A stretch of DNA of 64,000 nucleotides from assembly GCA_039698055.1 (NCBI GenBank), contig JBDKTL010000016.1, forward strand, positions 58,820 through 122,819, given 5' to 3'. Made by a program: the position numbers and the translations under genes. The notes beneath the pieces are model-generated. The model saw only the letters and a program-made list of their open reading frames with translations. It made no database searches and was not told where the DNA came from. Origin of the DNA: Methanoregula sp. (GTDB lineage Archaea > Halobacteriota > Methanomicrobia > Methanomicrobiales > Methanospirillaceae). Below are positions 7,095-27,621 of this stretch, in pieces; the first letter of the stretch is position 1, and each line of letters begins with the position of its first letter.

Positions 7095-8140
7095 ACCTGC
7101 ATCACCAGTTTTCCCTTGTGTTTTGCATACAATGCATAGTCCAGGTAGATTGGATTTTCCAAAAGTTTCTCAACACCCGGAGCCGCGTCGCGGTTGATTT
7201 TGTCTTTAATCGCGTCGGTTACCGTGAGGTCGAACGCGTCGCTGCCGGCACCGGACCCGAACGAACAGACAAAGATCGTGTCGCCCGGTTTTGCGATGTC
7301 CAGTGTTGCCGCAAGACCGATGGGTGATGCACCTGAGTAGGTGTTGCCAAGGCGCGGGACAACAAGGCCCGGTTTGATCTGCTCGGGCTTGAACCCAAGA
7401 TCTTTTGCGACCTTCTGCGGGAATTTCGCGTTTGGCTGGTGGAAGACCGCGTAGGTAAAGTCCTTGGGGCTTTTTCTGGTCTGCTCAAACAGAAGTGTGC
7501 TCGCACCCTTCACGTGTTTGAAGTAACCGGGGTCTCCGGTGAACCGTCCGCCGTGGCGGGGGTAGTCCTGGCCTTCCCGTCGCCAGAAGTCGGGAGTGTC
7601 GGTCGTGAACGAACAGGTATGGTTGATCGTTGCAATCGGGTCATCGTTTCCGATTACGTATGCTGCGCCGCCAGCTGCTGCCGTGTATTCGAGAGCGTCA
7701 CTTGGGGCACCCTGCGAAACATCGGAGCCGATTGCAACCCCGTACTTGATCATGTTGCTTTTTACAAGGCCCATACAGGTCTGGATTGCAGCCGTTCCTG
7801 CCTTGCAGGCAAACTCGTAATCTGCTGCGGTCATATTCGGCGTGGCACCAATTGCCTCGCCCACGGTACATGCGGTTGGTTTAACAGCGTATGGGTGGGA
7901 CTCGCTGCCCACGTACACGGCGCCGATCTCGGCCGGGTCCACGTGCCTGCGGAGCAGGGCATTCCTTGCCGCTTCAACAGCAATTGTTGCCGCGTCCTCG
8001 TCCATGTCCGGCACGGACTTTTCAAATACGCCAAGACCGCCGGTAATGTCGGACGCGTTGGCGCCCCACACCCGGGCAATCTCCTCAACCTTGATCCGGT
8101 ATCTCGGTATATACACACCGTAGGTAATGATGCCTACCAT
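7091..8140 (-). CDS. Hydroxymethylglutaryl-CoA synthase
   Basis: [46 protein letters not shown]; start at ATG 8140 (MVGIITYG). Confidence 0.95.
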
Positions 8141-8850
8141 TGTTTTTCCCTCAATGTACTCACAATTTTGTCGATTTCCATACTCGTGCACAGCACCGTA
8201 ATGTGATCGCGGTTCGCCATCTTTTCCACGATCGGGTGGACGTCGGCCGCTTCGATTCCCTGAAGCACAACGCACCGGGGTTTAAACGGGGTGACCCGGA
8301 TCGCCACCATTGGCGACTTGCCGGTCGACACGTTGGTAAAGATCAGGGCACGTTCCGTGCTCCACCCGTAAATGCGGTTGAATTCGTTGCTTGACAACTG
8401 CATGATCGCATTCAGGCTGTTTACGACTGTGTAACCGAAGATGGTCTTGTCCATCGATCCGCAGAGAAGCGTGCATCCAATCGCATCGGTAAGATCTTTG
8501 AGGGCGACAGGATTGTCATACTCGTGGAGATCGTAGATCACATCATCGACAACATTCGAAAAGAGCATGGTTGAAAATTTTTCAATTTGTTTGCCGCCTT
8601 TCTCCTCGTCAATAGCGAGAAGCGCATCGACAATTTTGCCGACAACAGCGGTCCCGGGACTTTTTCTCCGCCCGCTTTCGTAGTCACTGATCACGGACGG
8701 GGAAATGCTGAGGCGATCCGACAGGACGCCGGGCGCAATCTCAAAGTTCTGGCGCCATTTTTTCAGCGCAAGTCCCGGTGAGTCCGACAGGGTAATCTCA
8801 CCCGCCATCTTTTCGGCGAGCTGGTTACGCACTCCGGAATTCATACTCAT
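8134..8850 (-). CDS. Archaeal XRE-family HTH transcriptional regulator
   Basis: [43 protein letters not shown]; overlaps the HMGS start. Confidence 0.85.
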
Positions 8851-8968
8851 GATCAAGAACCCGTGGCGTTATATAATTAACGAACATGTGTTCGACATCA
8901 AACGAATGCCGACGAAGGGGCAGTGCAAAGGCAATCCATAAATAATAAGCATCCCAATTTTGATAAGC

Positions 8969-10414: not shown

Positions 10415-11599
10415 ATGAAAGTTCCCGCTTCCGAACTTAATGACCGCATGAACCGTTTCCGGGCACGGATGGATCTAACCAGCCCCGACTGGAAGGTCGC
10501 GGTGATACTGGAACGCATCCACCTCTACTATTTTACCGGCACGCTGCAGGACGGCATGCTCGTCATTACCCGGGATCATGAGCCGGTATTCTGGGTGCGG
10601 CGGAGTTACGAACGGGCGGTGGCCGAATCCCTGTTCCCGTGTATCCGGAAGATGAGGAGTTACCGTGACGCCGCCGCTGCAATGGGGCCCCTGCCAAAAA
10701 CGGTATACATGGAAACCAACCTTGTTACCCTTGCGCAACTCCAGCGGCTGCAAAAATATTTCCCCTTTACCGATATCCGGCCGGTTGACGAACAGGTAGC
10801 GGCGGTCCGGTCCGTGAAGAGCGCTTATGAACTGTCCCTTATGGAACATGCCGGGGAGATCCACCGGCATGTTCTTGAGGATTGCGTACCGGCGCTTCTT
10901 TTGGAAGGGATGAACGAGGTGGAACTCTCAAGCGATCTCTACTCGCTTATGGTGCGGGAAGGTCACCAGGGCATTATCCGGTTTGGGATGTTCAACGAGA
11001 TGGTGCTTGGCCAGATCGGGTTTGGGACCAGTTCAATCTCTCCAACCTGCGTGAATACCCCGGGGGGAATTTATGGCCTGCACCCGTCAGTCCCGCTGAT
11101 GGGGTGCCGTGAGCGGGACCTAAAAAAAGGAGATCTTGTCCTTGTTGATATCGGGTGCGGGTACAAAGGATACCAGACCGATAAAACCCAGACGTATATG
11201 TTTGGGAAACCGATTCCTGAAGATGCCATTCGGATCCATTACCAGTGCGTGGATATCCAGGACCAGATCGCGGCATACCTGAAACCAGGAGCGATCCCAT
11301 CAGAGATCTATACGAACGTCATGGAAAGTCTCGCGCCTGAATTTTTAAAAAATTTCATGGGATACGGGGATAACACGGTCAACTTTCTTGGCCATGGTAT
11401 CGGGCTGTGGATCGATGAAACCCCCGTAATCGCACAGGGATTTGATGAACCGCTGCAGGAGGGAATGGTGTTTGCGATTGAACCAAAGAAAGGAATCCGG
11501 GATGTCGGACTTGTAGGCATCGAGAACACGTTTGTCGTAACCCCGCAGGGAGGCCGGAGCATTACCGGAAAGAACCGGGGACTGATACCAGTATACTGA
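10415..11599 (+). CDS. Xaa-Pro peptidase (M24 family)
   Basis: LVDIG..GYQTDKTQT, GHGIGL, FAIEPK, VGIENT metal-binding motifs. Confidence 0.9.
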   Translation: MKVPASELNDRMNRFRARMDLTSPDWKVAVILERIHLYYFTGTLQDGMLVITRDHEPVFWVRRSYERAVAESLFPCIRKMRSYRDAAAAMGPLPKTVYMETNLVTLAQLQRLQKYFPFTDIRPVDEQVAAVRSVKSAYELSLMEHAGEIHRHVLEDCVPALLLEGMNEVELSSDLYSLMVREGHQGIIRFGMFNEMVLGQIGFGTSSISPTCVNTPGGIYGLHPSVPLMGCRERDLKKGDLVLVDIGCGYKGYQTDKTQTYMFGKPIPEDAIRIHYQCVDIQDQIAAYLKPGAIPSEIYTNVMESLAPEFLKNFMGYGDNTVNFLGHGIGLWIDETPVIAQGFDEPLQEGMVFAIEPKKGIRDVGLVGIENTFVVTPQGGRSITGKNRGLIPVY

Positions 11600-12319: not shown

Positions 12320-13572
12320 GGCGCACCTCCGGCGCGGTTCAAGAGCGCTGAATGTTCCCCGCTTTCGAATTTCGCCGGCTCGCAGGTATTGACCAGCAGC
12401 CGGTTCTCGATCTCACGACCGGTGCAGATCACGTACCGGCCAAGTATCGCATCCCGCATCCGGAGGAACACCTCGTCCATCCCGAGAGGGTTATTCTCCG
12501 CGATCTCTTTTGCCGTATCGAGCGTGATTTTTGTCAGTGACTCGACAACCTCGCGCTGCATCAGGATATTGTGCGTCTTCTCCCCATCGTCCAGCCACCC
12601 CTTGATCCGCAGATCATAGACAAAATTGGGCTGGATCTCGTGCACCGGACAGTAATTCTGGCGCGAGAGCGCGCGGTTGCATCCCTCCAACGGGCAGCGC
12701 TTGATAATCCCGGAACCGGGTGCGATGTGAACCATCGCGCCGCGTACCGTCACTTCACCCCCGCTCAGTGTGGCAATATCGCCATCCTCCTGCATGATTG
12801 TCGCGGTGGTCAGGTTCAGCGAGAGCCTGCCGTTGAACTCGTCAACCTGGCAATAGAAAATGGAATAGACCGAACCCATGGCAAGCCGCTCTTTACCGGG
12901 TTCTTTCCAGATCACGAACTTAATCGTGCCTGTCTCATCGCCCAAAAGCCCTGACTGGAGCATCCGTTCGTGCGTGGATTCCCATTCCTGCACCACCTTT
13001 GCACGGACACTTGCCACACCGGTGCGGAGAGAATTAATCGGTACGGGTGTGGGAATGAGCGGATCGGTTGTCCCGAGCTCCTTAACTGTGGTGCCGGAAT
13101 GAATCTTGAGGCTGGGGATTCCCTTGTATTCGTCGACAACTGCGGATTCAATACGATACCACCCACCCTCAGTCATGAGCGGGGCATTTGACTTTGCCCA
13201 GGCCACAAACCGGATTCCCCCGGACTCATCAGCGATGATGCCGCTTTGGGCAATCACCGGTGAGGCGGGCGATGCAAGTGACACCACTTTTCCTTCGATG
13301 GTCACCCAATCGCCCGGCACAGAGTCCGCGATCTTCTTCTGTTCTGTCGCGCCACCCGGACTTGTCCCGCCACTGCCCGGACTCGTAACCGGGATATTGA
13401 ACTCTTTGTAGAGTTCGTTTGTCACGCTACGCTCTGCTTCTGATGGCTGGACGCCGAACTCTTCAATGAGCCGGCGTAGTTTGCCTTCGATCTTCTGGCG
13501 ATCAACCGTTTGTCCTTTCTGTGAAAACTTACGGGAGATTCTTTCTGCTGTTTCGGAAAAATCCATGTTCAT
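12316..13572 (-). CDS. Replication protein A (multi-OB fold, Zn finger)
   Basis: Repeated OB folds (ADESG.I.F..W, GDETGTIKF..W), RCPLEGCNR..CPVH Zn finger, LDDG; start MNMDFS. Confidence 0.9.
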   Translation of the reverse strand: MNMDFSETAERISRKFSQKGQTVDRQKIEGKLRRLIEEFGVQPSEAERSVTNELYKEFNIPVTSPGSGGTSPGGATEQKKIADSVPGDWVTIEGKVVSLASPASPVIAQSGIIADESGGIRFVAWAKSNAPLMTEGGWYRIESAVVDEYKGIPSLKIHSGTTVKELGTTDPLIPTPVPINSLRTGVASVRAKVVQEWESTHERMLQSGLLGDETGTIKFVIWKEPGKERLAMGSVYSIFYCQVDEFNGRLSLNLTTATIMQEDGDIATLSGGEVTVRGAMVHIAPGSGIIKRCPLEGCNRALSRQNYCPVHEIQPNFVYDLRIKGWLDDGEKTHNILMQREVVESLTKITLDTAKEIAENNPLGMDEVFLRMRDAILGRYVICTGREIENRLLVNTCEPAKFESGEHSALLNRAGGAP

Positions 13573-16993: not shown

Positions 16994-17170
16994 AAGACTC
17001 CCTCCCGGTTTGTTGTAAGACATTTGTTTTTTGGGCTGATAACTGTGCGTCAGGCAGGCTGTCCTGGTATCTTCGTGCCGGTTTCCCAATCAACCGGACT
17101 GCAATAACCGTTCGGGGAAGCATTCATATAAACACACACATACATTCCCCTCTAACGGGAACTGGTACAT

Positions 17171-18619
17171 ATGAGTGAAATGTCTGCACCTCAGAAAATG
17201 TCGCCAAAAGATCTGATGATCGTCATCGTTGTCGCGCTGGGATCGTTCATGGCCGGCCTTGATGCGACGATTGTGAATATTGCCCTTCCCGCGATTGCAA
17301 AATCCTTTGATGTATCCACCGTTGCCGTCTCCTGGGTGCTCAACGCGTACCTGATTGTCCTTGTCAGTCTCCTGCTCGCGGCATCGCGTCTTGGGGACAT
17401 GAAAGGGTACCGGAACGTGTTCCTCGGCGGCTTTGCACTTTTTACCACGGGCTCCCTGCTCTGCGGGCTCTCGCCAACCCTTGATATTCTCATTTTATCC
17501 CGGATGGTGCAGGCTGTGGGTGGTGCCGTCATCTCCGCGTTAGGGGCCGTCATGGTCACCTCGTACCTTTCTGCATCCCTGCGGGGACAGGCGCTGGGTA
17601 TCGTCGCTATGTTCACGATGCTCGGGGCAGCACTAGGTCCGGTTGTCGGCGGGTTTTTGACCAGTGTATTTTCCTGGCAGTACATTTTCTTTGTGAACAT
17701 TCCGGTTGGGATCATTGCGATCTTCCTTGGCATGCACATTATCCCGCGCCTTGCCCCGGTCTCACCTTCGGCAAAGATGGATCATGGTGGAATTGTTCTG
17801 GTATTCGTGGCTCTTGGCACCCTGATCTTCGGCCTGACGACACTTCAGGGAACACAGCCGGTGATGGGAATCGCTGCTCTTGTGATCTCTACGATCTTCT
17901 GGATCCTGTTCTACGTGCAGGAACGGCGTAACGGGGAACCGCTTGTCAATATCTCCCTGTTTTCCAACCGGGCATATTCTCTTCAGAACGTGTGTGTCCT
18001 GCTCATCCAGATGGCGATGAGCGGCGTCATGGTTATCATGCCGTTCTATCTCGAAATTGTCAAAAAGATCCCGATTGACAACGCGGGCACGATCCTGCTG
18101 GCGCTTCCCGTTGGTATGATTGTCACCGCCCCCATTGCCGGGAAAATCTCGGACGTGATCGGGACAAAGAAACCCATCATCACCGGTTTTGTACTATGTG
18201 CAGTTGCGCTGTTCTTTTTCTCGACGATTTCTGCTGATACGAGCATCGGACATGTCTGTATCTACCTTCTCCTGCTCGGGGCAGGCACCGGTATTGCATT
18301 CTCGCCCCTGAACAGTGCCGTGATGGGCGAATGCCCGGCAAAAGATCGTGGGTCGACAAGCGGGCTTGTGAAGGTGATGACAAATCTCGGGTCATCGCTT
18401 GGTGTCGCAACCGTCATGCTCGTTGCCATGATAGCAGCCGGGCCAAAACTTGCCGAGTATTCCGCCCATTCGATTGCTTCAGCAGAACTCGCGGGTGCGT
18501 TTGATGCGACGTTCCTGTTCTGCATGGTGCTTGAGATTATCGGGATCGTGCTGATGCTTGTGGTGAAAGAAAAAGAGCCATCGGACGAGTGTGGCGGCGA
18601 AGTGGGGATTGGGTTTTAG
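17171..18619 (+). CDS. MFS drug:H+ antiporter (DHA2/EmrB-like, ~14 TMS)
   Basis: LDATIVNIALP, WVLNAY, SRLGDMKG, GPVVGG, WQYIFFVNIPVG. Confidence 0.92.
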   Translation: MSEMSAPQKMSPKDLMIVIVVALGSFMAGLDATIVNIALPAIAKSFDVSTVAVSWVLNAYLIVLVSLLLAASRLGDMKGYRNVFLGGFALFTTGSLLCGLSPTLDILILSRMVQAVGGAVISALGAVMVTSYLSASLRGQALGIVAMFTMLGAALGPVVGGFLTSVFSWQYIFFVNIPVGIIAIFLGMHIIPRLAPVSPSAKMDHGGIVLVFVALGTLIFGLTTLQGTQPVMGIAALVISTIFWILFYVQERRNGEPLVNISLFSNRAYSLQNVCVLLIQMAMSGVMVIMPFYLEIVKKIPIDNAGTILLALPVGMIVTAPIAGKISDVIGTKKPIITGFVLCAVALFFFSTISADTSIGHVCIYLLLLGAGTGIAFSPLNSAVMGECPAKDRGSTSGLVKVMTNLGSSLGVATVMLVAMIAAGPKLAEYSAHSIASAELAGAFDATFLFCMVLEIIGIVLMLVVKEKEPSDECGGEVGIGF

Positions 18620-18739
18620 TACACCGCAAAACGGCAACTCCTTCTTTTTGCCATTTGTAAAGGAACAGGCTTTAAAAAAAAATCGAAAGATAGATGGTGG
18701 AACGCCCGCGTATCTATCATACAAGAGGCATCTTTTGTC

Positions 18740-21700
18740 ATGCCGGCACCGCAACCGATTATCGATCTTATCCAACGCTACGAGTTCAATCGCCCGGTCT
18801 ATCACAAGGGGCAGAAGAACGAGACAGAACTGCGGCGGGAATTTCTTGATCCGTTCTTCCGTGCGCTTGGGTGGGACGTGGATAATAACAAGGGCTGGTC
18901 GGAGGCGTACAAGGAAGTCGCCCACGAAGACCCGATCCGTATCCGGGGCCAGACAAAATTCATTGATTACTCATTTCGGGTGGGCGGGGCCCGCAAGTTC
19001 ATCTGCGAGGCCAAGAAACCGGCTGTTGCCCTCAAAGACGATCTGGATGCAGCGCTCCAGTTGCGCAGGTACGCATGGAATGCCGGCTTAAAACTTTCAA
19101 TCCTGACAAACTTCGAGGAGTTCGCGGTCTACGACTGCAATGTTCCCCTTCGTAGCGACGATACGGCGGCAACAGCACGGATTGCCTATTTTCCCTATAC
19201 CGAATATGAAAACCGGTGGGACCGGATCGCTTCGGTCTTTTCCCCGGAGGGCATCCAGAAAGGCTCGTACGACAAGTACGTAGCAACAAACGGCGAGAAG
19301 CACGGGACCGCCGGTGTCGATGAGAAATTTCTGGAGGATATCGAGAACTGGCGGCTGCTGCTTGCCCGCAATATCGCGCTGCGGAATATCGGGCTCTCAC
19401 AGGAAGAGGTGAACACAGCAGTCCAGCTGATCATCGACCGGATTATTTTCCTGCGAATCTGCGAGGACCGGGGGATTGAGCACTACGAGACCCTGCATGC
19501 CCTGTCTCATGATCCGGGTGTCTATGCCCACCTCTGTGACCTGTTTTGTCTTGCGGATGACAAGTACAACTCCGGGCTTTTCCATTTCGCGGATGAAGTC
19601 GGGCTCGACGAGATGCCGGATACGCTTACGCCAAAACTCGTTATTGACGATGCGGTCTTAAAGACGATCATTAACCGGCTCTACTACCCGGAGAGCCCGT
19701 ACGAGTTCTCGGTGATCCCCGCTGAGATCCTCGGGCAGGTGTATGAGCAATTCCTCGGGAAAGTGATCAGGCTCACCGCAGCGCACCGGGCTGATGTGGA
19801 GGACAAGCCGGAGGTACGCAAGGCCGGGGGGGTCTTTTACACGCCCGCGTATATCGTGGACTATATCGTGAAAAAGACCGTGGGCGAACTGGTGAAGGGA
19901 AAAACTCCCCGCGAGGTGGCAAAACTCACCGTTGTCGATCCCGCGTGCGGCTCTGGTTCGTTCCTGCTCGGGACGTACCAGTTCCTGCTTGACTGGCACC
20001 GAGACTGGTACATCGGGCATCTTGTGCCGGTAATTGCAGACCATCCGGTAACCTCTCCGGAAGTCCGGGCGCTCCTGCCGGACCCTGTTGTTCCGGGGAA
20101 GGCGGCAAAGAAAGAAGGTGCGTACGAACTGCCGATCTACAAGGCCGGGACCGATCACTCCTCAAAGATGCGGAGCGACTGGCGGCTGACGACCGCGGAG
20201 CGCAAACGCATCCTCTTAAACAATATCTACGGTGTGGACATCGACACGCAGGCTGTTGAGGTGACGAAACTCTCGCTTCTCTTGAAAGTTCTTGAAGAGG
20301 AGAGCGAGGAGAATGTCTCAAAGCAGCTGAAACTTTTTGCTGAACGGGCGTTGCCCTCCCTGCATCACAATATCCGGTGCGGGAACTCGCTCGTTGCTCC
20401 GGATTACTTCGATCTCAAACAGGCGCACCCGTTCAACATGGAGGAGCAAAAGCGGATCAATGCGTTTGACTGGCAGGTCGGGTTCCCGCAGGTGATGAAG
20501 GCGGGCGGATTCGATGCGGTGATCGGCAACCCCCCATACGTCCGGCAGGAATCGCTCAAAGACCAGAAGGAGTATTACCAGTCCCGCTACGCAGTCTACC
20601 AGGGCACAGCCGATCTGTACGCGTACTTCATCGAGAAAGGAATTTCGCTTTTGTGCCCCGGGGGAATCTTCTCGTACATCGTGGCGAATAAATGGATGCG
20701 GGCGAACTATGGCAAGCCGCTCCGCAAGTTCCTCCTGACAAAACAGATCGAGGAGATCGTGGACTTCGGCGATCTGCCGGTCTTTAAAACCGCGACCACG
20801 TACCCGTGTATCATCCGGGTCAGGAATGCAAAACCGGCAAAGGAGATCTGCATCTCAAAGGTGGAGACGCTCGACTTCCCAAACCTTGCGGATTACGTGC
20901 AGCAGCACCGGCACCCGATTGAGCAGGCTACGCTCACGGACGGCGGCTGGACGCTTGGCGACAAACGGACGGAACTGCTGCTGAAGAAGTTGCAGAGTGT
21001 GGGGACGCCACTGGAAGAGTACGTGATGGGTGCGGTATACCGGGGGATTGTCACAGGGTTCAATGACGCTTTTGTGATTGATGAAAAAATCAAACAAAAA
21101 TTAATACAAGAAGATCCGAAAAGTGCAGAGGTCATTAAATCTTACATTGTAGGAAAAGATGTTCATAGATACGAACCCCAAAAACAAGGAAAATACATTA
21201 TTTACATTCCTTGGCATTTTCCGTTACATATGGATCCAACTATTACTGGAGCCTCTAAAAAATCTGAATTTGAGTTTAAAAAGCAATATCCAGCAATTTA
21301 TAACCATCTTCTTCAATACAAATCTCAATTAGAGAAACGTAATGCAACTGAAACGGGGATTCGATATGAATGGTATGCACTTCAACGATATGGATCTAAA
21401 TACTTCACAGAATTTAACAAACCAAAAATTGTGTATTTAGTTTTTCAAGTCAAACCAGCCTTTACATTCGATGCTGAGGGAGCATTTTATTTGAATAATG
21501 CGGTTTGGATGATCCCTAAACCTGATCTTTTTTTATTAGGAATACTAAATTCCAAACTTGGTTGGCTTTTGATCTCAAATTATTGTACACAAATCCAAAA
21601 TGGTTTTCAATTAATTTTCGACTATCTCGGTAAAATTCCCATCTACGTCCCCGACTTCGACAAGCTCGCAGACAAGACCCGGCACGACAAGATGGTTGCG

Positions 21701-21880
21701 CTCGTCACCCAGATATTGGAACTGAACCGCTACCTCCCGCAGGCAAAGACTGACCAGGAGCGGCGGTTGGTACAGCAGGACATCGATGCGACAGATGTCC
21801 GGATCGATGCGTTGGTGTATGATCTGTATGGACTGACGAATGAGGAGATAGCGCTAGTGGAAGGGGGCATAGTGAAATAA
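18740..21880 (+). CDS. Type IIG (Eco57I-like) fused restriction endonuclease / N6-adenine methyltransferase with TaqI-C-like TRD
   Basis: N-terminal nuclease (IDY..ICEAKK..QLRRY), GVFYTP, DPACGSGSFL, IYGVDID, GNSL, IGNPPYV, C-terminal TRD and helical tail. Confidence 0.92.
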   Translation: MPAPQPIIDLIQRYEFNRPVYHKGQKNETELRREFLDPFFRALGWDVDNNKGWSEAYKEVAHEDPIRIRGQTKFIDYSFRVGGARKFICEAKKPAVALKDDLDAALQLRRYAWNAGLKLSILTNFEEFAVYDCNVPLRSDDTAATARIAYFPYTEYENRWDRIASVFSPEGIQKGSYDKYVATNGEKHGTAGVDEKFLEDIENWRLLLARNIALRNIGLSQEEVNTAVQLIIDRIIFLRICEDRGIEHYETLHALSHDPGVYAHLCDLFCLADDKYNSGLFHFADEVGLDEMPDTLTPKLVIDDAVLKTIINRLYYPESPYEFSVIPAEILGQVYEQFLGKVIRLTAAHRADVEDKPEVRKAGGVFYTPAYIVDYIVKKTVGELVKGKTPREVAKLTVVDPACGSGSFLLGTYQFLLDWHRDWYIGHLVPVIADHPVTSPEVRALLPDPVVPGKAAKKEGAYELPIYKAGTDHSSKMRSDWRLTTAERKRILLNNIYGVDIDTQAVEVTKLSLLLKVLEEESEENVSKQLKLFAERALPSLHHNIRCGNSLVAPDYFDLKQAHPFNMEEQKRINAFDWQVGFPQVMKAGGFDAVIGNPPYVRQESLKDQKEYYQSRYAVYQGTADLYAYFIEKGISLLCPGGIFSYIVANKWMRANYGKPLRKFLLTKQIEEIVDFGDLPVFKTATTYPCIIRVRNAKPAKEICISKVETLDFPNLADYVQQHRHPIEQATLTDGGWTLGDKRTELLLKKLQSVGTPLEEYVMGAVYRGIVTGFNDAFVIDEKIKQKLIQEDPKSAEVIKSYIVGKDVHRYEPQKQGKYIIYIPWHFPLHMDPTITGASKKSEFEFKKQYPAIYNHLLQYKSQLEKRNATETGIRYEWYALQRYGSKYFTEFNKPKIVYLVFQVKPAFTFDAEGAFYLNNAVWMIPKPDLFLLGILNSKLGWLLISNYCTQIQNGFQLIFDYLGKIPIYVPDFDKLADKTRHDKMVALVTQILELNRYLPQAKTDQERRLVQQDIDATDVRIDALVYDLYGLTNEEIALVEGGIVK
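21671..21862 (+). repeat. Direct repeat copy 1 (~190 bp, 3' end of type IIG gene)
   Basis: GACAAGACCCGGCACGACAAGATGGTTGC...CAGGAGCGGCGGTTGGTACAGCAGGACATCGATGCG recurs at 23399-23591. Confidence 0.93.
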
Positions 21881-21934
21881 CACATTCACACCACACGCCA
21901 CTTTTTTATAATTATCAGAATACGATCGCTCTTT

Positions 21935-22075
21935 ATGCCATACACTTGTGGCGAAAAGCCAGGAAAAGGAACGTATCGCTGTCGAAAAGATGGGGAAATT
22001 ATCAGGTTGGATCAGGACTCTGATGTTTTACCGCCTTGTCCCAGATGTGCAGCATGCAGCTGGGATAAAATATAA
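21935..22075 (+). CDS. Small Zn-ribbon protein (46 aa, not in ORF track)
   Basis: Manual translation MPYTCGEKPGKGTYRCRKDGEIIRLDQDSDVLPPCPRCAACSWDKI*; GEKPGKGTY.C...LPPCP.C pattern; TTTTATAA upstream. Confidence 0.78.
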   Translation: MPYTCGEKPGKGTYRCRKDGEIIRLDQDSDVLPPCPRCAACSWDKI

Positions 22076-22173
22076 CTTTTTAAGAGGATTGTTCATCATT
22101 CCTTATGAGATTAAATAACGAATTATACTTCACAATCTTTAATTCATCGCAAACAAAGCATCAACATAAGGCC

Positions 22174-22620
22174 ATGGTAGATATTGAAATTCCCTAGGAT
22201 GAGGCAGACGCACTCATACAAATGCAAAAGTACCGGATAAATGACGATACTTGGCATTTTCCTGGCAGGGGGCGCTCCATTAACGTCCCATTACAATCGG
22301 AAGACAAGCGAAATAATTTCATATTGGATCTCTGGCGGAGCAGGCTGGAACTGAATAAAGTTACGTACCAGAACCGGGCACACCAAATGATAATTCTGGT
22401 CAGACTGGACTTAACCGGCAAACCGCACAAAAATCCTGACGATGAAATACTTACCGGGCCGCACATTCATCTATATCAAGAAGGATATGCTGACAAATGG
22501 GCATATTCTGTCCCATCCGATTCGTTTTCGGATCTTTCCGATCAATGGCAGACATTGAAAGACTTCATGACGTATTGTAATATTGTAAAAGGGCCAAACA
22601 TAATTGCGGGAATTGAGTAA
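22174..22620 (+). pseudogene. DUF6978-like protein with in-frame TAG at codon 8 (or N-truncated CDS from ATG 22222)
   Basis: ATG GTA GAT ATT GAA ATT CCC TAG GAT GAG GCA GAC GCA CTC continues in frame into MQKYR...VRLDL.GKPHKNPD..GPHIHLYQEGY..WA..F..YCNI. Confidence 0.7.
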
Positions 22621-23384
22621 TGATCAGCGACATCCAGCGATTGGTTAACGGATATCTTCAATGGCTTAACGAATCGATCAGCCTGCGCCAGGTTGATGAA
22701 TGGGTCGAAATTACTACACCATTCCTGGACCGGCATAACGATTATCTTCAGATCTATGTCAGGAAGGAAAATGGCGGGTATGTTCTGACAGATGATGGAT
22801 ATATTCTGGAAGATCTGAAAATGTCAGGATGCAAAATTGATACAGACAAGAGGCAGGCGCTCTTGTTAACGACACTCAAGGGTTTTGGTGTGCAGAATGA
22901 TCGGGGTGTCCTGACAATAAAAACAACAGAAAAATCATTCCCCCAGAAAAAACACAACATCTTACAGGCAATGCTTGCGGTCAATGATCTGTTCTATCTT
23001 TCTGAACCAATTATTGCAAGTTTATTCTATGAAGATGTAGTTGCATGGTTAGATGAAACCGAGATCCGGTATTCTCCCAAGGTAAAATTCACCGGCAAAT
23101 CTGGTTATGATCACCTTTTTGATTTTGTTATTCCGAAATCCAGACAGGAACCCGAAAGAATTCTACAGACAATAAATAATCCGAACAGGGCGCAGGCAGA
23201 AATGCTATCTTTCTCATGGATTGATACAAAAGATGTCCGTGCTCCTGATTCCAAAGCATATGCAATCCTCAATGATAAGGAACGTCGCATTCCGGAAGAA
23301 GTTCCAACAGCTCTGGAAAATTACGGAGTCCTCCCTCTCAAATGGAGCAAGCGCGAACAGTATATTCCTGAATTAATCGCGTAA
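22620..23384 (+). CDS. DUF1828 + DUF1829 domain protein
   Basis: [62 protein letters not shown]; 1-nt overlap (TAATG) with the upstream gene. Confidence 0.8.
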
Positions 23385-23398
23385 ATACGACTAAATCT

Positions 23399-23606
23399 GA
23401 CAAAGACCCGGCACGACAAGATGGTTGCACTGGTCACCCACATTTTGGAACTGAACCACTACCTCCCGCAGGCAAAGACCGATCAGGAGCGGCGGTTGGT
23501 ACAGCAGGACATCGATGCGACGGATGTCCGGATCGATGCGCTGGTGTATGATCTCTACGGTCTGACCGCGGAAGAGATCGAGCTCGTTGAATCGGCTACA
23601 CGCTGA
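23399..23606 (+). repeat. Direct repeat copy 2: orphan 3' fragment of type IIG gene (61-aa ORF 23421-23606)
   Basis: Encodes MVALVTHILELNHYLPQAKTDQERRLVQQDIDATDVRIDALVYDLYGLTAEEIELVE, nearly identical to the C-terminus of 18740..21880. Confidence 0.93.
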
Positions 23607-23826
23607 ACGGCAGAATAGTATAACCAGATCCGCCACGTGCCCGATGAGCATTCCCCCTTTCATAACTGTGTTTCCAATCCAGAATTTTTCCATTTTAAAA
23701 ATTTACCAAAAATTTATCTTTCCAAAAATTCTATTGATTTACCTGGATATGAGCGGGTGGTAGCACATGAGATCGAAAAAGAACCTGTCCGGGAAATCCA
23801 CGCAGAACTCTGGCGTCAATGAACCC

Positions 23827-24069
23827 ATGGCGGATTACCATTCAGGCACCGGACCCATCATCGCGGTGGACCCAACCGGCAGGATGGTACTTCCCAAAAA
23901 AATCCGGGATCACTTTGCGGTAAACAAGTTTGAGGTCCGGGCGACAAAAGGGCATATCGAGTTGATCCCGGTCAAGCCGCTTCGTTCACTGCTGGGGGCG
24001 CTTCCCGATCTTGATCTGGAGAATATGTATCGGGAGCATGACCGGGAAGTCGATGAGGAGGATGCATAA
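23827..24069 (+). CDS. AbrB/MazE-type antitoxin (VapB)
   Basis: VDPTGRMVLPKKIRD swapped-hairpin motif, acidic tail, abuts PIN gene; alternative start 23767. Confidence 0.85.
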   Translation: MADYHSGTGPIIAVDPTGRMVLPKKIRDHFAVNKFEVRATKGHIELIPVKPLRSLLGALPDLDLENMYREHDREVDEEDA

Positions 24070-24465
24070 GTGACCGGCACCGGCCTCCTTGTAGACACGT
24101 TCACGTGGATTGAAATTTTCAAAGACACAGCTTGGGGAAACCATGCGATGAAATACATAGAAAAACACTCCCCGGTTTTTATTTCCGTACTGACGCTGTA
24201 TGAGTTACAATGCCGTCTTCTGGAAATGTACGGCGATGAAAAAACTTCCTCGCTCCTTGAAACGATTCTCGTGCATACGGACGCGATACCGGTTGACAAC
24301 CTGATCGCAGTTCGTGCCGGATCAATAAATGCTGAACAAAAACGAGCGAACAGCAAAATGGGCGCAGTCGATTGCATGATCCTTGCAACTGCACAGATCC
24401 ACCACCTGGGCCTCCTCGCCGGCGACAAGCATTTTTATGGACTTGAAGAATCCGTCATTATCTGA
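24070..24465 (+). CDS. PIN-domain toxin (VapC)
   Basis: LVDTFTWIE, LTLYEL, MGAVDCMILATA, LLAGDKHF. Confidence 0.88.
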   Translation: MTGTGLLVDTFTWIEIFKDTAWGNHAMKYIEKHSPVFISVLTLYELQCRLLEMYGDEKTSSLLETILVHTDAIPVDNLIAVRAGSINAEQKRANSKMGAVDCMILATAQIHHLGLLAGDKHFYGLEESVII

Positions 24466-24888
24466 CGGCCACCGTCGGAGAAAAAAATTCGCCCCACATT
24501 GGGCACCGGACGGCCGATCTCTTGTTTTTCCTCCTCTAGTCTGCCTTAAAAAAAGGGGGCGCTGGAAGCCCGCTAAATTGGCCGGTTTTTTCCTGATTAA
24601 AACCGTTATTTTCAGGAAATACCGATTTTAAAGAGAATTTTTGTCGGGCGTCAACACCATTTCCACTGGAGATTTTCCCAATGCGGTCAGCCGTACAGGT
24701 CTTACGTCGGAGAATACATCATGGGAATGATGGCGTCCATAGTGTGAGTGTAACTGGTTATATGGGATACAGTAAGGATGATGTCGATGTCACGATCGAG
24801 ACCGGAGTCATACTCCCCGGGCTCCTTGCAAACAAAATATCGGGCAGGGATACCGTGGAGTTGACGTGCCAGAATGATACCGGTTTCC

Positions 24889-27621
24889 TTATGTGATCCG
24901 GTACTTTCCCTTCGGCACCAGGATCTCGAACCGGGCGCCTTTGCCCGGCTCACCGGTTTCCCTGATGGCGATGCCTGTCAGGGCAAGAATTTCCTGGATA
25001 AGGAACAGCCCAAGGCCAGTGTTTTTCCCAAAGCCCCGTTCAAAGATCCGCTTTTTTTCATCGGCTGCGATGCCCGTCCCATTGTCTTCCCACACAAGGA
25101 CCAATACTTCCCCTTCCTTATGGGACGATACCCGGATTTCAGTCACCCGCTCACCGTGCCGGACCGAGTTGTCAAGGAGGTTGCATAAGACGTTTTCCAG
25201 CATCGGGTCGGTAAATACTGACACGCCCTGTACATCCATTTTCAGGACAATTGTTGCCGGAACCTGTGAACAGGGCAGGATCGTGTCCACATCGATCCAC
25301 TGCGGCTCATGGGTGCCAAGTCTCTGGTAGAGCCGGGTAAATTCAATGTGCGACCGGATTGCCGTTGTGGCAGATTTAATTTTTCTTAAATATTCGCCCA
25401 GCGCGGGATCGTTCCAATTCAATTCTGCGATCTTAAGATACCCGAGGATAACCGTAATCTTGTTGAGGATGTCGTGCCTGGTTATGCTGCCGAGCAGGTT
25501 GAGCTGGCGGTTCGCAAGCCGGAGTTTCTCTTCGGCTTTCTTGCGCTCTGTAATGTCTATTATCACTCCCCGGAACCCACGTATTTTCCCGTCTGGCCCG
25601 ATTACCGGTGAGGCGCGAACCTCAATGACCAGATCGTGCCCGTCGCGGTGGCGGGCGGCAACTTCAAACGGCAGGTATGGCCCCTGGGATGAAACAAGTC
25701 GCGAGAGTTCCTGCAGGGCAAAAGCCGTCCTCTCATGGGGGGTCAGATCCAATATTGTTTTTCCAACCAGTTCGTCCGGTGTATAGCCCATGATCGATTC
25801 GGAGGAAGGACTGATGTATTGGAATTTCCCCCGCACGTCGATCTCCCAGATCATGCCCGGGGAGGTCTCCACAAGATTCCGGTATTTCTCCTCGCTTTCC
25901 ATGAGCGCCTGTTCCGCTTTCCTGCGTTCGGTGATCTCCCTGATGATCGCAACACAGAGCGAATTACCATTATAGTATTGCAGGCTCACTTCTACGGGGA
26001 TAATCCGCCCGTCTTTTGTCCGTTCCTCGCCTTCGAACGTGACATGGGAGGCAGTACGGAGGGACGTCCCGATCCACTCCATTTCCTTTTCAGATTGGGG
26101 CATCGTGATATCGGGCATGGAGAGGGTGAGCAGTTCGGCTTTTGTATACCCGAGTGCCTCGATAACACGATCGTTCGCATCAAGAATCCGCCCGGGACGA
26201 TTTGCCGGGGTGATTTCATGGCTGATGATCTGGTCGTTTGCATGATTGAATAGATCCCGGTATTTCTCTTCGCTTTCCCTGAGTACCTCCCCGGCTCTCT
26301 TACGTTCAGTGATGTCCTCGATGACACCGATAACCTTGGCCGGCTGCCCATTCATTTCCTTTTCGAGCCGGGCAATGGAGTGTATATCTCTCGGCGATGA
26401 GCCGTCTGCGGGGTTGATGATGTAATCAAGGTTGTACTCCTGCTCTGTTGTGATCAGATCAATGAGTGCCTGGTGAATCCGCTCCCGCTCCGGTATGCAG
26501 GCTTCGATGTCCGCTATTGGGAAGTCACCTGCGACAGCAGGATACCCGAAGATACAAAGCGCATTTGCCGATCCCCAGATTTTGTCGGTCGCAAGATCAT
26601 ACTCCCAGCTGCCGGAATGGCCGACAGCTTGTGCCATCGCCAGCCGCTCTTCGTTAATCCGGATCGTGCGTTCGCTCTCTGCAAGTTGATCGAAATGCCT
26701 GAGGAGTTCCTGTTTGGCAGCCGTGAGATGTTCGTTTGCCGTCTGCAGTTCATCGTAGTGCGACCGCAGCTCTTCTTCCGTTGCGGTTACCTGTTCATAC
26801 GCCGCCCGGAGTTCCAGTTCGATCTTCTTTAATTCCGTGATGTCCCGGATCGATTCTATCGCCCCGGTGATCTCTCCTTCCGGGTTATAGAGCGGACCTG
26901 CCTTGAGGAGCGCGAAGATCCGGTGCCCTTTGGGATGGGGGAGCTCAGTCTCGACCGTGAGTGAATTGCCGGTTCTGCGGACATTCGAATAGAATTGCAG
27001 AATTTTTTCATCCGGCTCATCGATGAGGTCGATGAGACCCGGACGTCGGGAGCCATAGAACCGGATGGTATATTCATAATCTCCCTTTCCCAGCATATCG
27101 CCGGCAGGAATCCCGGTCATCTCTTCAATGGCACGATTCCACGTAATTACGTGCCCGGACCGGTCGATGGCAAACGTGGCATCGGGAAGAAAATCGATGA
27201 TATCAGCGAGACGCCGTTCCGAGTCGTGGAGCAAACGCTCTGCCCGTTTTCTTCTCACTGCCTGACGAATCTTGTGCGCCAGCTCGGCAAACTGCGCGGC
27301 CGGGTCGCCGCCCTTCTGGATGTAGAAGTCTGCACCGTTGTTGATCGCATCGATCACGACCTCCTCGCGGCCCCGTCCGGTGAAGAGAATAAACGGGATG
27401 TCACCAAACCGCTCCCGGACCTCCTTTAAAAAAGCGATCCCGTCCATCCCCGGCATCTGGTAGTCGGAGACGATGGCATCGCAGGACAAGAGGGAAGGGG
27501 AGTTCAGTGCATCCTGTGCCGAAGTCGAGGTCACGACGCGGAACTCCCCCGATTTCTCAAGGAAGAGCTGTGCTATTTCAAGAAGGTCCTTCTCATCATC
27601 AACATAGTGAACAGAGATCAT
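24889..27621 (-). CDS. Hybrid REC-multi-PAS-histidine kinase
   Basis: YVDDE/SDYQMPGMDG receiver, several PAS/PAC repeats, RHDILN, NLLDNSVRHG, DNGTG, GLGLF. Confidence 0.93.
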   Translation of the reverse strand: MISVHYVDDEKDLLEIAQLFLEKSGEFRVVTSTSAQDALNSPSLLSCDAIVSDYQMPGMDGIAFLKEVRERFGDIPFILFTGRGREEVVIDAINNGADFYIQKGGDPAAQFAELAHKIRQAVRRKRAERLLHDSERRLADIIDFLPDATFAIDRSGHVITWNRAIEEMTGIPAGDMLGKGDYEYTIRFYGSRRPGLIDLIDEPDEKILQFYSNVRRTGNSLTVETELPHPKGHRIFALLKAGPLYNPEGEITGAIESIRDITELKKIELELRAAYEQVTATEEELRSHYDELQTANEHLTAAKQELLRHFDQLAESERTIRINEERLAMAQAVGHSGSWEYDLATDKIWGSANALCIFGYPAVAGDFPIADIEACIPERERIHQALIDLITTEQEYNLDYIINPADGSSPRDIHSIARLEKEMNGQPAKVIGVIEDITERKRAGEVLRESEEKYRDLFNHANDQIISHEITPANRPGRILDANDRVIEALGYTKAELLTLSMPDITMPQSEKEMEWIGTSLRTASHVTFEGEERTKDGRIIPVEVSLQYYNGNSLCVAIIREITERRKAEQALMESEEKYRNLVETSPGMIWEIDVRGKFQYISPSSESIMGYTPDELVGKTILDLTPHERTAFALQELSRLVSSQGPYLPFEVAARHRDGHDLVIEVRASPVIGPDGKIRGFRGVIIDITERKKAEEKLRLANRQLNLLGSITRHDILNKITVILGYLKIAELNWNDPALGEYLRKIKSATTAIRSHIEFTRLYQRLGTHEPQWIDVDTILPCSQVPATIVLKMDVQGVSVFTDPMLENVLCNLLDNSVRHGERVTEIRVSSHKEGEVLVLVWEDNGTGIAADEKKRIFERGFGKNTGLGLFLIQEILALTGIAIRETGEPGKGARFEILVPKGKYRIT

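Follow-up and report, generated by a model that had tools for sequence, protein, structure and literature searches.

The type IIG locus and its neighbors

The stretch of Methanoregula sp. DNA analyzed here (64,000 nucleotides, referred to below as the window) carries a restriction-modification (R-M) gene whose last part is found again downstream, behind three small genes. Other genomes and loci are given by G and L numbers. The features of the region are the following:

17171–18619, + strand: MFS transporter gene (Pfam MFS_1, 1.7e-65), conserved left flank of a variable R-M locus in the genus
18740–21880, + strand: intact type IIG R-M gene, 1046 aa (PADLOC REase_MTase_IIG, 9.5e-210, residues 7–1037)
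21070–21630, + strand: AT-rich target-recognition part (TRD), a swapped allele (GC 0.317 vs 0.563 in the rest of the gene)
21671–21866, + strand: C-terminal segment, copy 1, the end of the working gene (direct repeat; profile match 21653–21868, E 8.7e-41)
21838–21880, + strand: tail of copy 1, putatively foreign and traveling with the cargo (the single copy of G352 turns stub-like about here)
21935–22075, + strand: small Zn-ribbon ORF, 46 aa, first cargo gene (weak Pfam matches to DUF1451, 5.5e-5, and Zn_ribbon_8, both below cut-off)
22222–22620, + strand: PDC-M24A (DUF6978; PADLOC PDC-M24A 9.7e-52, Pfam DUF6978 2.3e-40)
22620–23384, + strand: PDC-M24B (DUF1828 + DUF1829 in Pfam; PADLOC PDC-M24B 1.2e-105)
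23400–23606, + strand: stub, C-terminal segment copy 2 (direct repeat; profile positions 8–74, E 6.6e-39)
23767–24465, + strand: vapBC-like pair, resident neighbor of the stub (PIN at 24070–24465, Pfam 2.7e-11; 100 aa partner with no Pfam match)
24448–24768, + strand: right conserved flank, aligning to the sequence just after the gene ends of G352 (80%) and G327 (87%)

The gene product is a predicted type IIG restriction-modification enzyme, in which Pfam recognizes HSDR_N (26–134), Eco57I (494–682), N6_Mtase, and TaqI_C (801–968). This is the Eco57I/MmeI-like single-chain R-M-S layout, with an N-terminal nuclease, a gamma-class N6-adenine methyltransferase, and a C-terminal TRD. An earlier note on this DNA had proposed that the TRD was swapped, and TRD alleles are in fact shuffled relative to the gene body across relatives. 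G352, the nearest relative with 92% in the gene body, has no alignment at window 21117–21548, the window TRD is common to G388 and L030, and contigs of co-occurring strains jump from 21030 to 21638/21650, skipping the TRD. On the left, the MFS gene is syntenic and 74–92% identical in many members of the genus, where it lies beside different R-M genes. On the right, the vapBC-like pair is conserved (57–69%) behind the C-terminal segment in relatives, and the window stub is contiguous with vapBC in the same way as the intact gene end in G262, G252, G345, and G293:C121.

The insert between the two copies (1.5 kb) consists only of the Zn-ribbon ORF and PDC-M24A/B, with no R or M gene. The stop of PDC-M24A overlaps the start of PDC-M24B, and the adjacent pair matches both PADLOC profiles and is a PADLOC candidate defence system; in the available text of PMC13092281, DUF1829 is tied to defence only in another system, DS-6/HipAD. 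In an alignment by eye with G243, all five Cys of the Zn-ribbon ORF are kept and the changes are mostly synonymous; the frame in G243 holds a stop, and the ORF is missing from G330.

Two divergent copies of the gene end

The repeat search found a direct repeat of 189 nt with 89% identity at window 21674–21862 and 23403–23591, with a spacing of 1729, which bears out the earlier observation that the last ~190 bp recur ~1.73 kb downstream; between 17000 and 27000 the same search found nothing else above 73 nt at 78%. GC is 0.56 in both copies vs 0.417 in the cargo, whose three ORFs correspond to the three AT-rich genes noted before. The stub in the window lacks the first ~7 profile positions and has an open frame at 23421–23606. 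The gene tails are unlike, as had also been seen (copy 1 ..NEEIALVEGGIVK vs copy 2 ..AEEIELVESATR). Compared by codon, the two copies have 21 nt differences in 19 codons, 15 of them synonymous and 4 non-synonymous (p 1.5e-5 against a synonymous share of 0.3), so the description of the copies as differing mainly at synonymous sites was correct. Four stub states of the window recur in G071. Judged from this pattern, the window copies appear to be alleles and not a fresh duplicate, because most of the differing codons are synonymous and stub states recur in another genome.

These data bear on an alternative based on the insertions with long target duplication of Kobayashi and colleagues, in which a non-homologous entry of unknown kind would have duplicated ~195 bp of resident target and the copies would have diverged later. 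The class is documented for R-M-linked insertions with direct repeats of 46–423 bp and no mobility gene, according to the available text of Furuta et al. 2010 (PMC2853133). In G260 (L021), moreover, the copies are 94% identical up to the stop codon and the next best copy anywhere reaches 75%, and both window repeats align to the single copy of G352 (21548–21862 at 87%, 23403–23598 at 89.8%). However, 11% of sites differ in the window, and the 15 vs 4 codon changes together with the shared stub states argue for alleles that evolved in working genes and not for decay after duplication. In addition, the tail of the main copy is contiguous with cargo in other genomes, and the insert lacks the R or M gene that the available text of PMC2853133 makes a criterion of the class. 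A target duplication is consequently considered quite unlikely.

An assembly artefact is unlikely as well, since both cargo junctions are bridged by one unitig of 1751 nt (21763–23513) from the run that is the likely source, and the junction between cargo and orphan is also bridged by a contig of 151 nt (23284–23434, 0 differences) that comes from a sludge run of an unrelated study. The genome is a bin of 49 contigs and De Bruijn unitigs break at 31-mers common to both copies, as might be expected if gene ends from two strains had been collapsed or fused into a chimera during metagenome assembly, but the same layout occurs in chromosome-level records (e.g., L031, a 2.29-Mb record), and the chance of such an artefact is regarded as close to nil. 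Excision, circles, and the collapsed allele were not seen among assembled contigs (contigs only, not reads).

Stubs and cargo in the same genome and in relatives

The arrangement recurs in the same genome. At a second locus (L006), three to four stubs (7172–7393, 8096–8320, 8900–8956, and 10690–10749) lie behind the main gene and alternate with cargo unlike that of the window. Among 61 loci fetched by enzyme similarity alone, and limiting the count to those with at least 2 kb downstream, stubs are present in 15/25 archaeal and 4/13 bacterial loci (12/25 and 3/13 at E <= 1e-4), counts that are not independent because most of the genomes are MAGs and related. The earlier note had made its reading depend on such orphan C-terminal copies alternating with varied cargo, and relatives do contain them. 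All stubs lie downstream of the main gene and on its strand; the stub profile search gave 0 matches in 256,607 bp upstream of the enzyme genes and 0 matches on the opposite strand of the fetched loci. Arrays reach up to 5 stubs. The ORF that follows on the same strand overlaps the stop codon in 25/84 C-terminal copies, including RhuM and PIN behind stubs. Frameshifts or indels split 5/26 stubs, a sign that stubs probably decay.

The variation is concentrated in the slot between gene end and stub. The 13 window-type loci comprise 4 without a stub and 9 with stubs and show 6 different cargo sets, the same slot in orthologous loci being occupied by M24, by DUF4411+ImmA, by others, or empty. A clear example is the pair G330 and G388, which are alike in the flanks (82–95%), the gene body (91.7%), the main C-terminal segment (93.5%), and in the stub and all behind it; between C-terminal segment and stub, G330 has M24A/B and G388 has DUF4411+ImmA. 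These orthologous loci differ only in this cargo; cargo variation among relatives is what the earlier note had called for.

Stub 3' ends are complete, whereas the 5' ends are ragged, starting anywhere between ~90 codons ahead of the segment and profile position 62 (a spread of >150 codons). Such ends are not the product of pure homologous exchange, and this counts against the C-terminal segment as a homologous anchor; non-homologous joining or later erosion must therefore also be involved. Site-specific elements typically leave direct repeats of a gene's 3' end around inserted DNA. A recombinase encoded elsewhere might thus use a site in the C-terminal segment to insert cassettes, in an integron-like manner or as a 3'-end-targeting element with a replacement end. 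The genome has 5 tyrosine recombinases (PF00589), and direct repeats of 3' ends flanking inserts are also discussed in the available text of PMC2853133. Nevertheless, the window and the contig that carries the second locus contain none of the 5, the nearest being ~55 kb from the window locus on the window's own contig, in agreement with the integrase-free character first claimed for it. Stub left ends point to no single site, and right cargo junctions differ among genomes with the same cargo. This possibility is hence rated as very improbable.

Breakpoints inside the C-terminal segment

Homologous recombination anchored in the segment would account for the position of the breakpoints, which, as placed by alignment, fall inside the conserved C-terminal segment. 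Over nt 1–165, the single copy of G352 has 8 differences to the main copy vs 16 to the stub; over nt 166–189 it has 8 to the main copy vs 3 to the stub, and its tail is stub-like (Fisher p about 0.07 in both tables for the window breakpoint, with few sites). G352 can be the naive state or the collapsed allele, since either fits. Another example is G327, whose main gene is a different 826-aa Eco57I/TaqI_C gene: against G352 it is 49% identical in the first ~150 nt of the comparison, and 88% identical from the middle of the segment onward into the flank. No recombination signal emerged (p 0.92) when 65 near-full copies with 24 biallelic sites were subjected to a PHI-type permutation. The nearest relative of a copy lies in its own locus in 7/23 cases only, a count that weighs against the anchor and indicates mixed histories.

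The junctions of the M24 cargo are also informative. The junction from tail to M24 cargo is common to the window and G330, and G243 keeps a ~10-nt remnant of it, with the M24 unit 6.5 kb down the array of another gene. The right-hand junctions of this cargo differ in the three genomes, and the homology of the three M24 units stops a few bases from the M24B stop codon in all of them, which again speaks against the anchor.

Alternatively, complete incoming R-M genes with their downstream partners might replace the resident each time, through a left-hand crossover in the flank upstream and illegitimate joining on the right; each stub would then be the end of a former resident and the main gene of the window the newcomer. 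The locus behind the MFS gene does hold either 1046-aa IIG or ~800-aa Eco57I/TaqI_C genes (G327, G252, others), some stubs retain 30–90 extra codons of an older TRD, and in G243 the M24 unit is far down the array of a gene that shares only 58% identity with that of the window. On the other hand, the MFS flank and gene body of the window match G352 at 92% over 3.9 kb without a break, the C-terminal segment of G352 is main-like in its 5' part, and gene body and stub plus vapBC are orthologous across 13 loci in which only the slot content changes. Serial displacement of whole genes is for these reasons held to be unlikely.

A proposed mechanism

The reading favored here, to which a probability of roughly 0.55 is assigned, is that the C-terminal segment serves as a homologous-recombination anchor at which a foreign tail and its cargo entered, so that the resident end was pushed downstream, and that successive rounds built the arrays. 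In Eco57I/TaqI_C-type R-M genes, the final ~65 codons would be conserved enough in DNA to act as a crossover site, and foreign DNA would have come into the resident gene of the window via a crossover within them. The incoming piece would have begun with the last part of the C-terminal segment from a related gene and continued with the Zn-ribbon ORF and PDC-M24A/B, probably with a further C-terminal fragment behind the cargo. The window gene would retain a full 3' end, now with a foreign tail, and the resident end, still attached to its old neighbor vapBC, would have been displaced 1.73 kb downstream as a dead stub. Arrays would grow as further rounds add units of cargo and stub. Cargo that lies between two copies of the segment could be moved to a naive gene by a double crossover or shed by the reverse crossover. 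The ragged stub 5' ends suggest that non-homologous joining takes part, either in the initial event at a locus or in subsequent erosion. The direction of the event, the RadA-type recombination machinery, and the mode of DNA entry are presumed. As for the model of the earlier note, its homology anchor gains support from the segment breakpoints, the recurrence, and the cargo variation, and its excisable or amplifiable unit does not, none having been seen among contigs.

A broader and more doubtful proposal is that the C-terminal module of Eco57I/TaqI_C-type R-M genes is an integrase-free cassette landing pad, from which bracketed defence cassettes spread across R-M genes and loci. Stubs would then persist because they are the right-hand homology arm.

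Relation to known systems

The nearest known counterparts of the present loci are the displacement arrays described in the Rhs, CDI, and T6SS toxin loci, a line of work to which Koskiniemi 2014 reportedly belongs, and the R-M insertions with long target duplication. Rhs/CDI orphan arrays and the sequential displacement of T6SS effector-immunity (T6SS-EI) modules, as presented in the available text of Kirchberger 2017 (PMC5361080), citing Jackson 2009 and Poole 2011, resemble the present loci in having a main gene followed by same-strand truncated copies of itself, each with its own downstream accessory genes, and no integrase. They are also alike in the proposed homologous anchor on one side and illegitimate joining on the other, in the later homologous exchange of whole modules, and in arrays from which earlier events can be reconstructed. 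However, in that account their anchor lies upstream of a variable toxin tip and they keep toxin immunity, whereas here the anchor is the extreme R-M 3' end, downstream of the variable TRD, the stubs are the conserved end and not a variable tip with cognate immunity, and the modules are unrelated defence or toxin-antitoxin genes; hosts are mainly methanogenic archaea. The arrangement, for which the earlier note knew of no description, is therefore less unprecedented than it held.

The class of Furuta et al. 2010 (PMC2853133) shares with the window, in its available text, an insert of <20 kb (here 1.5 kb), a repeat of >30 bp (here 189 nt), no mobility gene (here no tyrosine recombinase within ~55 kb), and an empty relative to which both repeats align (here G352). 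In that class, however, the insert is an R-M system with R and M homologues, the target an unrelated host sequence, and the repeats nearly identical; here, non-R-M cargo lies between repeats of the R-M gene's own end, the copies are apparently diverged alleles, and stubs form arrays. According to the same text, R-M genes and type IIG TRDs also undergo allelic substitution, and the screen it describes retained no archaeal case. Integron cassette arrays are similar in their fixed entry beside a resident gene, their older cassettes pushed downstream, and their variable cargo, but the present loci have no adjacent integrase and no attC-like fixed recombination site at the cassette borders, the repeats being coding sequence of the neighboring gene. 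Finally, accessory defence genes are known in or beside R-M loci, e.g., prrC in a type IC locus (EcoSal review, PMC12707154). Defence genes are similarly coupled to the R-M gene here, RhuM, PIN, and others being translationally coupled to the gene end, although the available text of that review describes no trail of 3' stubs.

Biological significance

The layout points to the stacking of defence genes by ordinary recombination without an integrase. The genes that occupy the slot from the type IIG gene end to the stubs show a strong enrichment of defence and toxin-antitoxin modules, known or candidate (among them PDC-M24, PD-Lambda-4_A, DitA, E1-E2/JAB, PIN, HEPN/MNT, HicA, RhuM, and YhcG), and therefore unannotated slot proteins are good candidates for new defence functions. 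The stubs would allow earlier exchanges at a locus to be dated and put in order, much like the orphan modules of toxin loci. If the C-terminal module is a landing pad, homologous recombination would spread cassettes in Methanomicrobiales and some bacteria, the reverse crossover would shed them, and R-M genes would nucleate defence islands. For the growth of such islands where no mobile elements are evident, above all in archaea, these arrays suggest a concrete and testable route, in which the recombination anchor is a conserved stretch of coding sequence from a common defence gene.

The repeated gene end of the window

In the region 17000-27000, a repeat search returns only one long direct repeat, a pair of 189 nt with 89% identity and a spacing of 1729 nt (the runner-up has 73 nt at 78%), in agreement with the earlier note, which had the last ~190 bp of a type IIG R-M gene recurring ~1.73 kb downstream. 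Copy 1 is the 3' end of an intact ORF of 1046 aa, which matches the PADLOC type IIG profile from end to end (9.5e-210) and contains the Pfam domains HSDR_N, Eco57I, N6_Mtase, and TaqI_C. Copy 2 is located in a frame of 61 codons with the gene body absent in front of it; such an orphan copy of the conserved last ~65 codons of Eco57I/TaqI_C-type R-M genes (the segment) is referred to here as a stub. The tails of both copies are unlike each other, and their 21 base differences are spread over 19 codons, of which 15 differ synonymously, so that the excess of synonymous changes described before is borne out. The three AT-rich genes between the copies correspond to a small Zn-ribbon ORF and to genes A and B of the PADLOC candidate defence system PDC-M24 (M24A and M24B).

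Features of the window
17171-18619: MFS transporter gene
18740-21880: type IIG R-M gene, 1046 aa; GC of the gene body 0.563
21070-21630: target-recognition part (TRD) of this gene; GC 0.317
21674-21862: copy 1; GC 0.561
21935-22075: cargo ORF 1, 46 aa, Zn-ribbon
Cargo ORF 2: DUF6978 protein, PDC-M24A (PADLOC 9.7e-52)
Cargo ORF 3: DUF1828/DUF1829 protein, PDC-M24B (PADLOC 1.2e-105); GC of the cargo 0.417, against ~0.56 for the copies
23403-23591: copy 2; GC 0.565; frame 23421-23606
23767-24465: vapBC-like pair (PIN 2.7e-11)

This layout is not an assembly error, since a 1751-nt unitig from the probable source run spans 21763-23513 and a contig of an unrelated sludge run spans 23284-23434 with 0 differences. 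A joint of copy 1 to copy 2 was not found among Logan contigs, which cannot reveal rare forms. Around the TRD part (window 21030-21650), contigs from the probable source run (at depth 15.9 vs ~354) and from a groundwater run jump from 21030 to 21650 or 21638; they appear to represent another TRD allele in co-occurring strains, with borders matching those of the GC shift. The Zn-ribbon ORF (13020-13160 in locus L011) keeps all five Cys, with mostly synonymous changes with respect to genome G243; since it has an in-frame stop in G243 and is absent in G330, the M24 pair can seemingly do without it. Another frame overlapping this ORF (21948-22118) is open in three genomes. Further downstream, a 910-aa response-regulator/PAS histidine kinase (24889-27621, minus strand) contains internal 73-nt and 25-nt repeat families, which are most likely repeated PAS modules unrelated to the stubs.

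Stub arrays in the genome and the clade

Searching the genome of the window at the DNA level has revealed three further places with similarity to the segment. A second array, formed by a paralogous type IIG gene and four stubs on its strand, is found on contig 21 (locus L006, 106000-120000 of the contig). The cargo between these stubs consists of a PIN protein with a small partner, a membrane/Zn-ribbon protein, a RhuM fragment, and a YhcG/DUF1016 nuclease, and the stop codons of three stubs overlap the ATG of the next gene.

Arrays and stubs at other loci (coordinates of each locus)
L006, 2572-10749: 1047-aa type IIG gene and four stubs
L006, 7172-7393, 8096-8320, 8900-8956, and 10690-10749: the stubs, same strand as the gene
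L007 (contig 48 of the window's genome), 7240-7380: lone stub with an internal deletion
L062 (genome G293, contig 109), 12788-20368: longest array seen, main gene and five stubs, one of them split by a frameshift

No R-M gene exists within ~6 kb of the lone stub on contig 48, which lies among catalase-peroxidase, radical SAM, and cation efflux genes and is probably all that is left of an R-M gene since lost. The longest array carries NERD, YhcG/DUF1016, RhuM, HicAB, and a PIN protein with its partner as cargo. A profile of the segment finds matches in 219 of 401 genomes of the order and in 98 of 102 of the genus; among the 150 of 450 matches listed, many are in short frames just 3' of matches in frames of ~1000 aa. 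A census was carried out by six-frame search of 61 loci chosen by enzyme similarity alone, with counts restricted to those that include the end of the main gene and 2 kb or more of downstream sequence. Repeated C-terminal fragments, which the earlier note expected in relatives, are present in 15 of 25 archaeal loci at E <= 0.01 (12 at E <= 1e-4; 22 stubs in total, with a maximum of five per locus) and in 4 of 13 bacterial loci (3 at E <= 1e-4), from Nitrospirae and Planctomycetota, these counts being descriptive and not independent trials because most genomes are MAGs and they are related to one another. All census stubs lie 3' of the main gene and on its strand, with 0 matches in 256,607 bp upstream and 0 on the opposite strand. 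Stubs decay: frameshifts or indels interrupt 5 of the 26 in the census, and truncation is common.

Contents of the slot

The variation of cargo predicted for relatives is seen most directly in the orthologous loci of G330 and G388, with flanks 82-95% identical, gene bodies 91.7%, and main C-terminal segments 93.5%. The slot between gene end and stub holds M24A/B (1.36 kb) in G330, and DUF4411 plus an ImmA/IrrE peptidase on the other strand (1.83 kb) in G388; homology picks up again at the stub, and the tail peptide is identical in both.

Slot contents in the 13 loci carrying the window's gene type
No stub: 4 loci (G352, G293 contig 121, G306, G302)
M24: 2 loci (window, G330)
DUF4411+ImmA: 3 loci
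Own cargo, each different: 3 loci
vapBC, then stub: 1 locus (G262)

Assessed by Pfam or PADLOC, slot genes include the named defence systems or candidates PDC-M24, PDC-M14A-like, PD-Lambda-4_A, and DitA, and a further candidate in which an E2/ThiF/JAB fusion has an MBL-like partner. Nucleases and related domains (NERD, SLFN/AlbA_2, YhcG/DUF1016) and modules of toxin-antitoxin type (PIN pairs, HEPN+nucleotidyltransferase, HicA, DUF4258+MqsA-like) are also found, the remainder being RhuM, DUF4411+ImmA, DUF3800, DUF5615, DUF4238, and DUF5677; in one examined subset, 8 of 20 slot proteins have no Pfam family. At L011 (10425-11195), a module of three genes (MBL-like, E2/ThiF/JAB fusion, unknown) encodes a 256-aa protein with the ending ..LTEKEIAIVEGNAK, a remnant of an R-M C-tail fused to the cargo gene, followed by ATGA and RhuM.

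The locus behind the MFS gene is itself variable in the genus. The window's R-M gene is flanked by this gene and the vapBC-like pair, and in other genomes the place is taken by varied genes of one broad family, some of type IIG (1040-1100 aa) and others of Eco57I/TaqI_C type, ~800 aa long and without the N-terminal nuclease domain (e.g., G327, 826 aa); the conserved segment is the common ending of them all. The vapBC pair follows a stub in the window, G345, and G323, and an intact gene end in G262, G252, and G293 contig 121. This distribution argues that stub and vapBC are the old resident arrangement, ahead of which the cargo would have arrived. A third, 18-nt stub fused to the vapC end was ruled out, as VapC homologues elsewhere share this ending (..GLEETIIL, ..GLDETIVL). 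In G352 and G327, the R-M tail (..VESVSI) is fused in frame to the last vapC codons (sites compared: window 23589-23606 and 24445-24470; L008 7100-7130; L009 5490-5515), and the vapC-end resemblance reflects loss of vapBC by deletion between the 7-nt microhomologies GAATCGG and GAATCCG, not to an additional stub.

Junctions, breakpoints, and origin of the copies

At the left junction, the last codons of the main gene and the sequence that follows are common to the window and G330. In G243, an 84% identical M24 unit is found 6.5 kb along the array behind a gene only 58% identical to that of the window, preceded by ~10 nt of main-gene tail joined to a RhuM pseudogene. The common junction and this remnant indicate that tail and cargo travel as one. 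Tail types also track cargo types, with RhuM behind ..VEGxxK and an overlapping ATGA in L006, L057, and L062. The right junction differs among the three genomes: the stub starts at profile position 8 in the window and at position 49 in G330, and is absent in G243. At all loci the 3' ends of stubs are complete, and the 5' ends spread from ~90 codons 5' of the segment (L037) to profile position 62. A site-specific recombinase inserting the cargo is unlikely, given that neither the cargo junctions nor the 5' ends of the stubs are fixed, and that of the genome's five tyrosine recombinases none is closer than ~55 kb on this contig, the others being elsewhere in the assembly; the earlier note, too, saw no integrase between the copies. 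In the M24 units of L031, L011, and the window, homology breaks off at most a few bases from the M24B stop codon, and the sequences beyond differ.

On the more probable reading, the segment is a crossover site for homologous recombination, through which a foreign tail and cargo enter and the resident end is displaced downstream; breakpoints are then expected within it. The closest relative, G352, is 92% identical across 3.9 kb that take in the MFS gene and the body of the R-M gene, and has one segment copy, a different TRD, and no cargo. Over nt 1-165 this copy has 8 differences from the main copy and 16 from the stub; over nt 166-189 it has 8 and 3, respectively, and the tail beyond is stub-like. 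This pattern weakly suggests a crossover near nt 165 (Fisher p ~0.07), which could be due to insertion in the window's lineage or to cargo loss in that of G352 by copy-copy recombination. Displacement of the whole gene probably happens at the MFS locus, where one site hosts different gene architectures; it fits the window less well, because gene body and flank track G352 unbroken. A clearer putative breakpoint is offered by the two different genes of G327 and G352, with 49% identity over the first ~150 nt compared and 88% over the next 90 nt, similarity running on into the flank. In the main/stub pairs of L037, L057, and L035, central tracts of 35-55 nt are identical, and the ends on either side have diverged. 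A PHI-type permutation test for recombination on 65 near-full copies gave no signal (p 0.92), at 24 biallelic sites only and with low power, and in a nearest-neighbour test for concerted evolution the nearest relative was in the own locus for just 7 of 23 copies.

The proportion of synonymous codons between the window copies (p 1.5e-5 against a neutral 0.3), together with the reappearance of four stub states in G071, implies that the differences arose while both copies belonged to working genes; the copies are thus best read as alleles, not as a fresh duplication. In G260, where both copies are 94% identical up to the stop codon, the event would be recent or a true target duplication. Long target duplications accompanying R-M insertions, as the accessible text of Furuta et al. 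(PMC2853133) describes them, fit G260 better than the window. Extending the window stub 480 nt upstream by blastx gave a match across M24B to a single bacterial protein (28% identity), which was treated as spurious.

Relation to known systems

Sequential displacement of T6SS effector genes has been described by Kirchberger et al. (PMC5361080), who, in the accessible part of their article, invoke a homologous anchor and illegitimate joining and refer to Rhs C-terminal displacement and integrons. The stub arrays resemble this process, as far as that part describes it, and are probably a case of homology-anchored displacement that leaves orphan fragments. The accessible text of PMC2853133 also reports type IIG TRD substitution, and the screen presented there kept 0 archaeal cases. 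A full-text literature search, of incomplete coverage and with supplements outside it, returned no account of R-M gene 3' ends as stubs between cargo. What is known is the principle of homology-anchored displacement, and the setting for which no description was found is the 3' end of type IIG R-M genes. Stub arrays are real, general, and mechanistically informative, and their setting is mainly methanogens, with defence cassettes as cargo.
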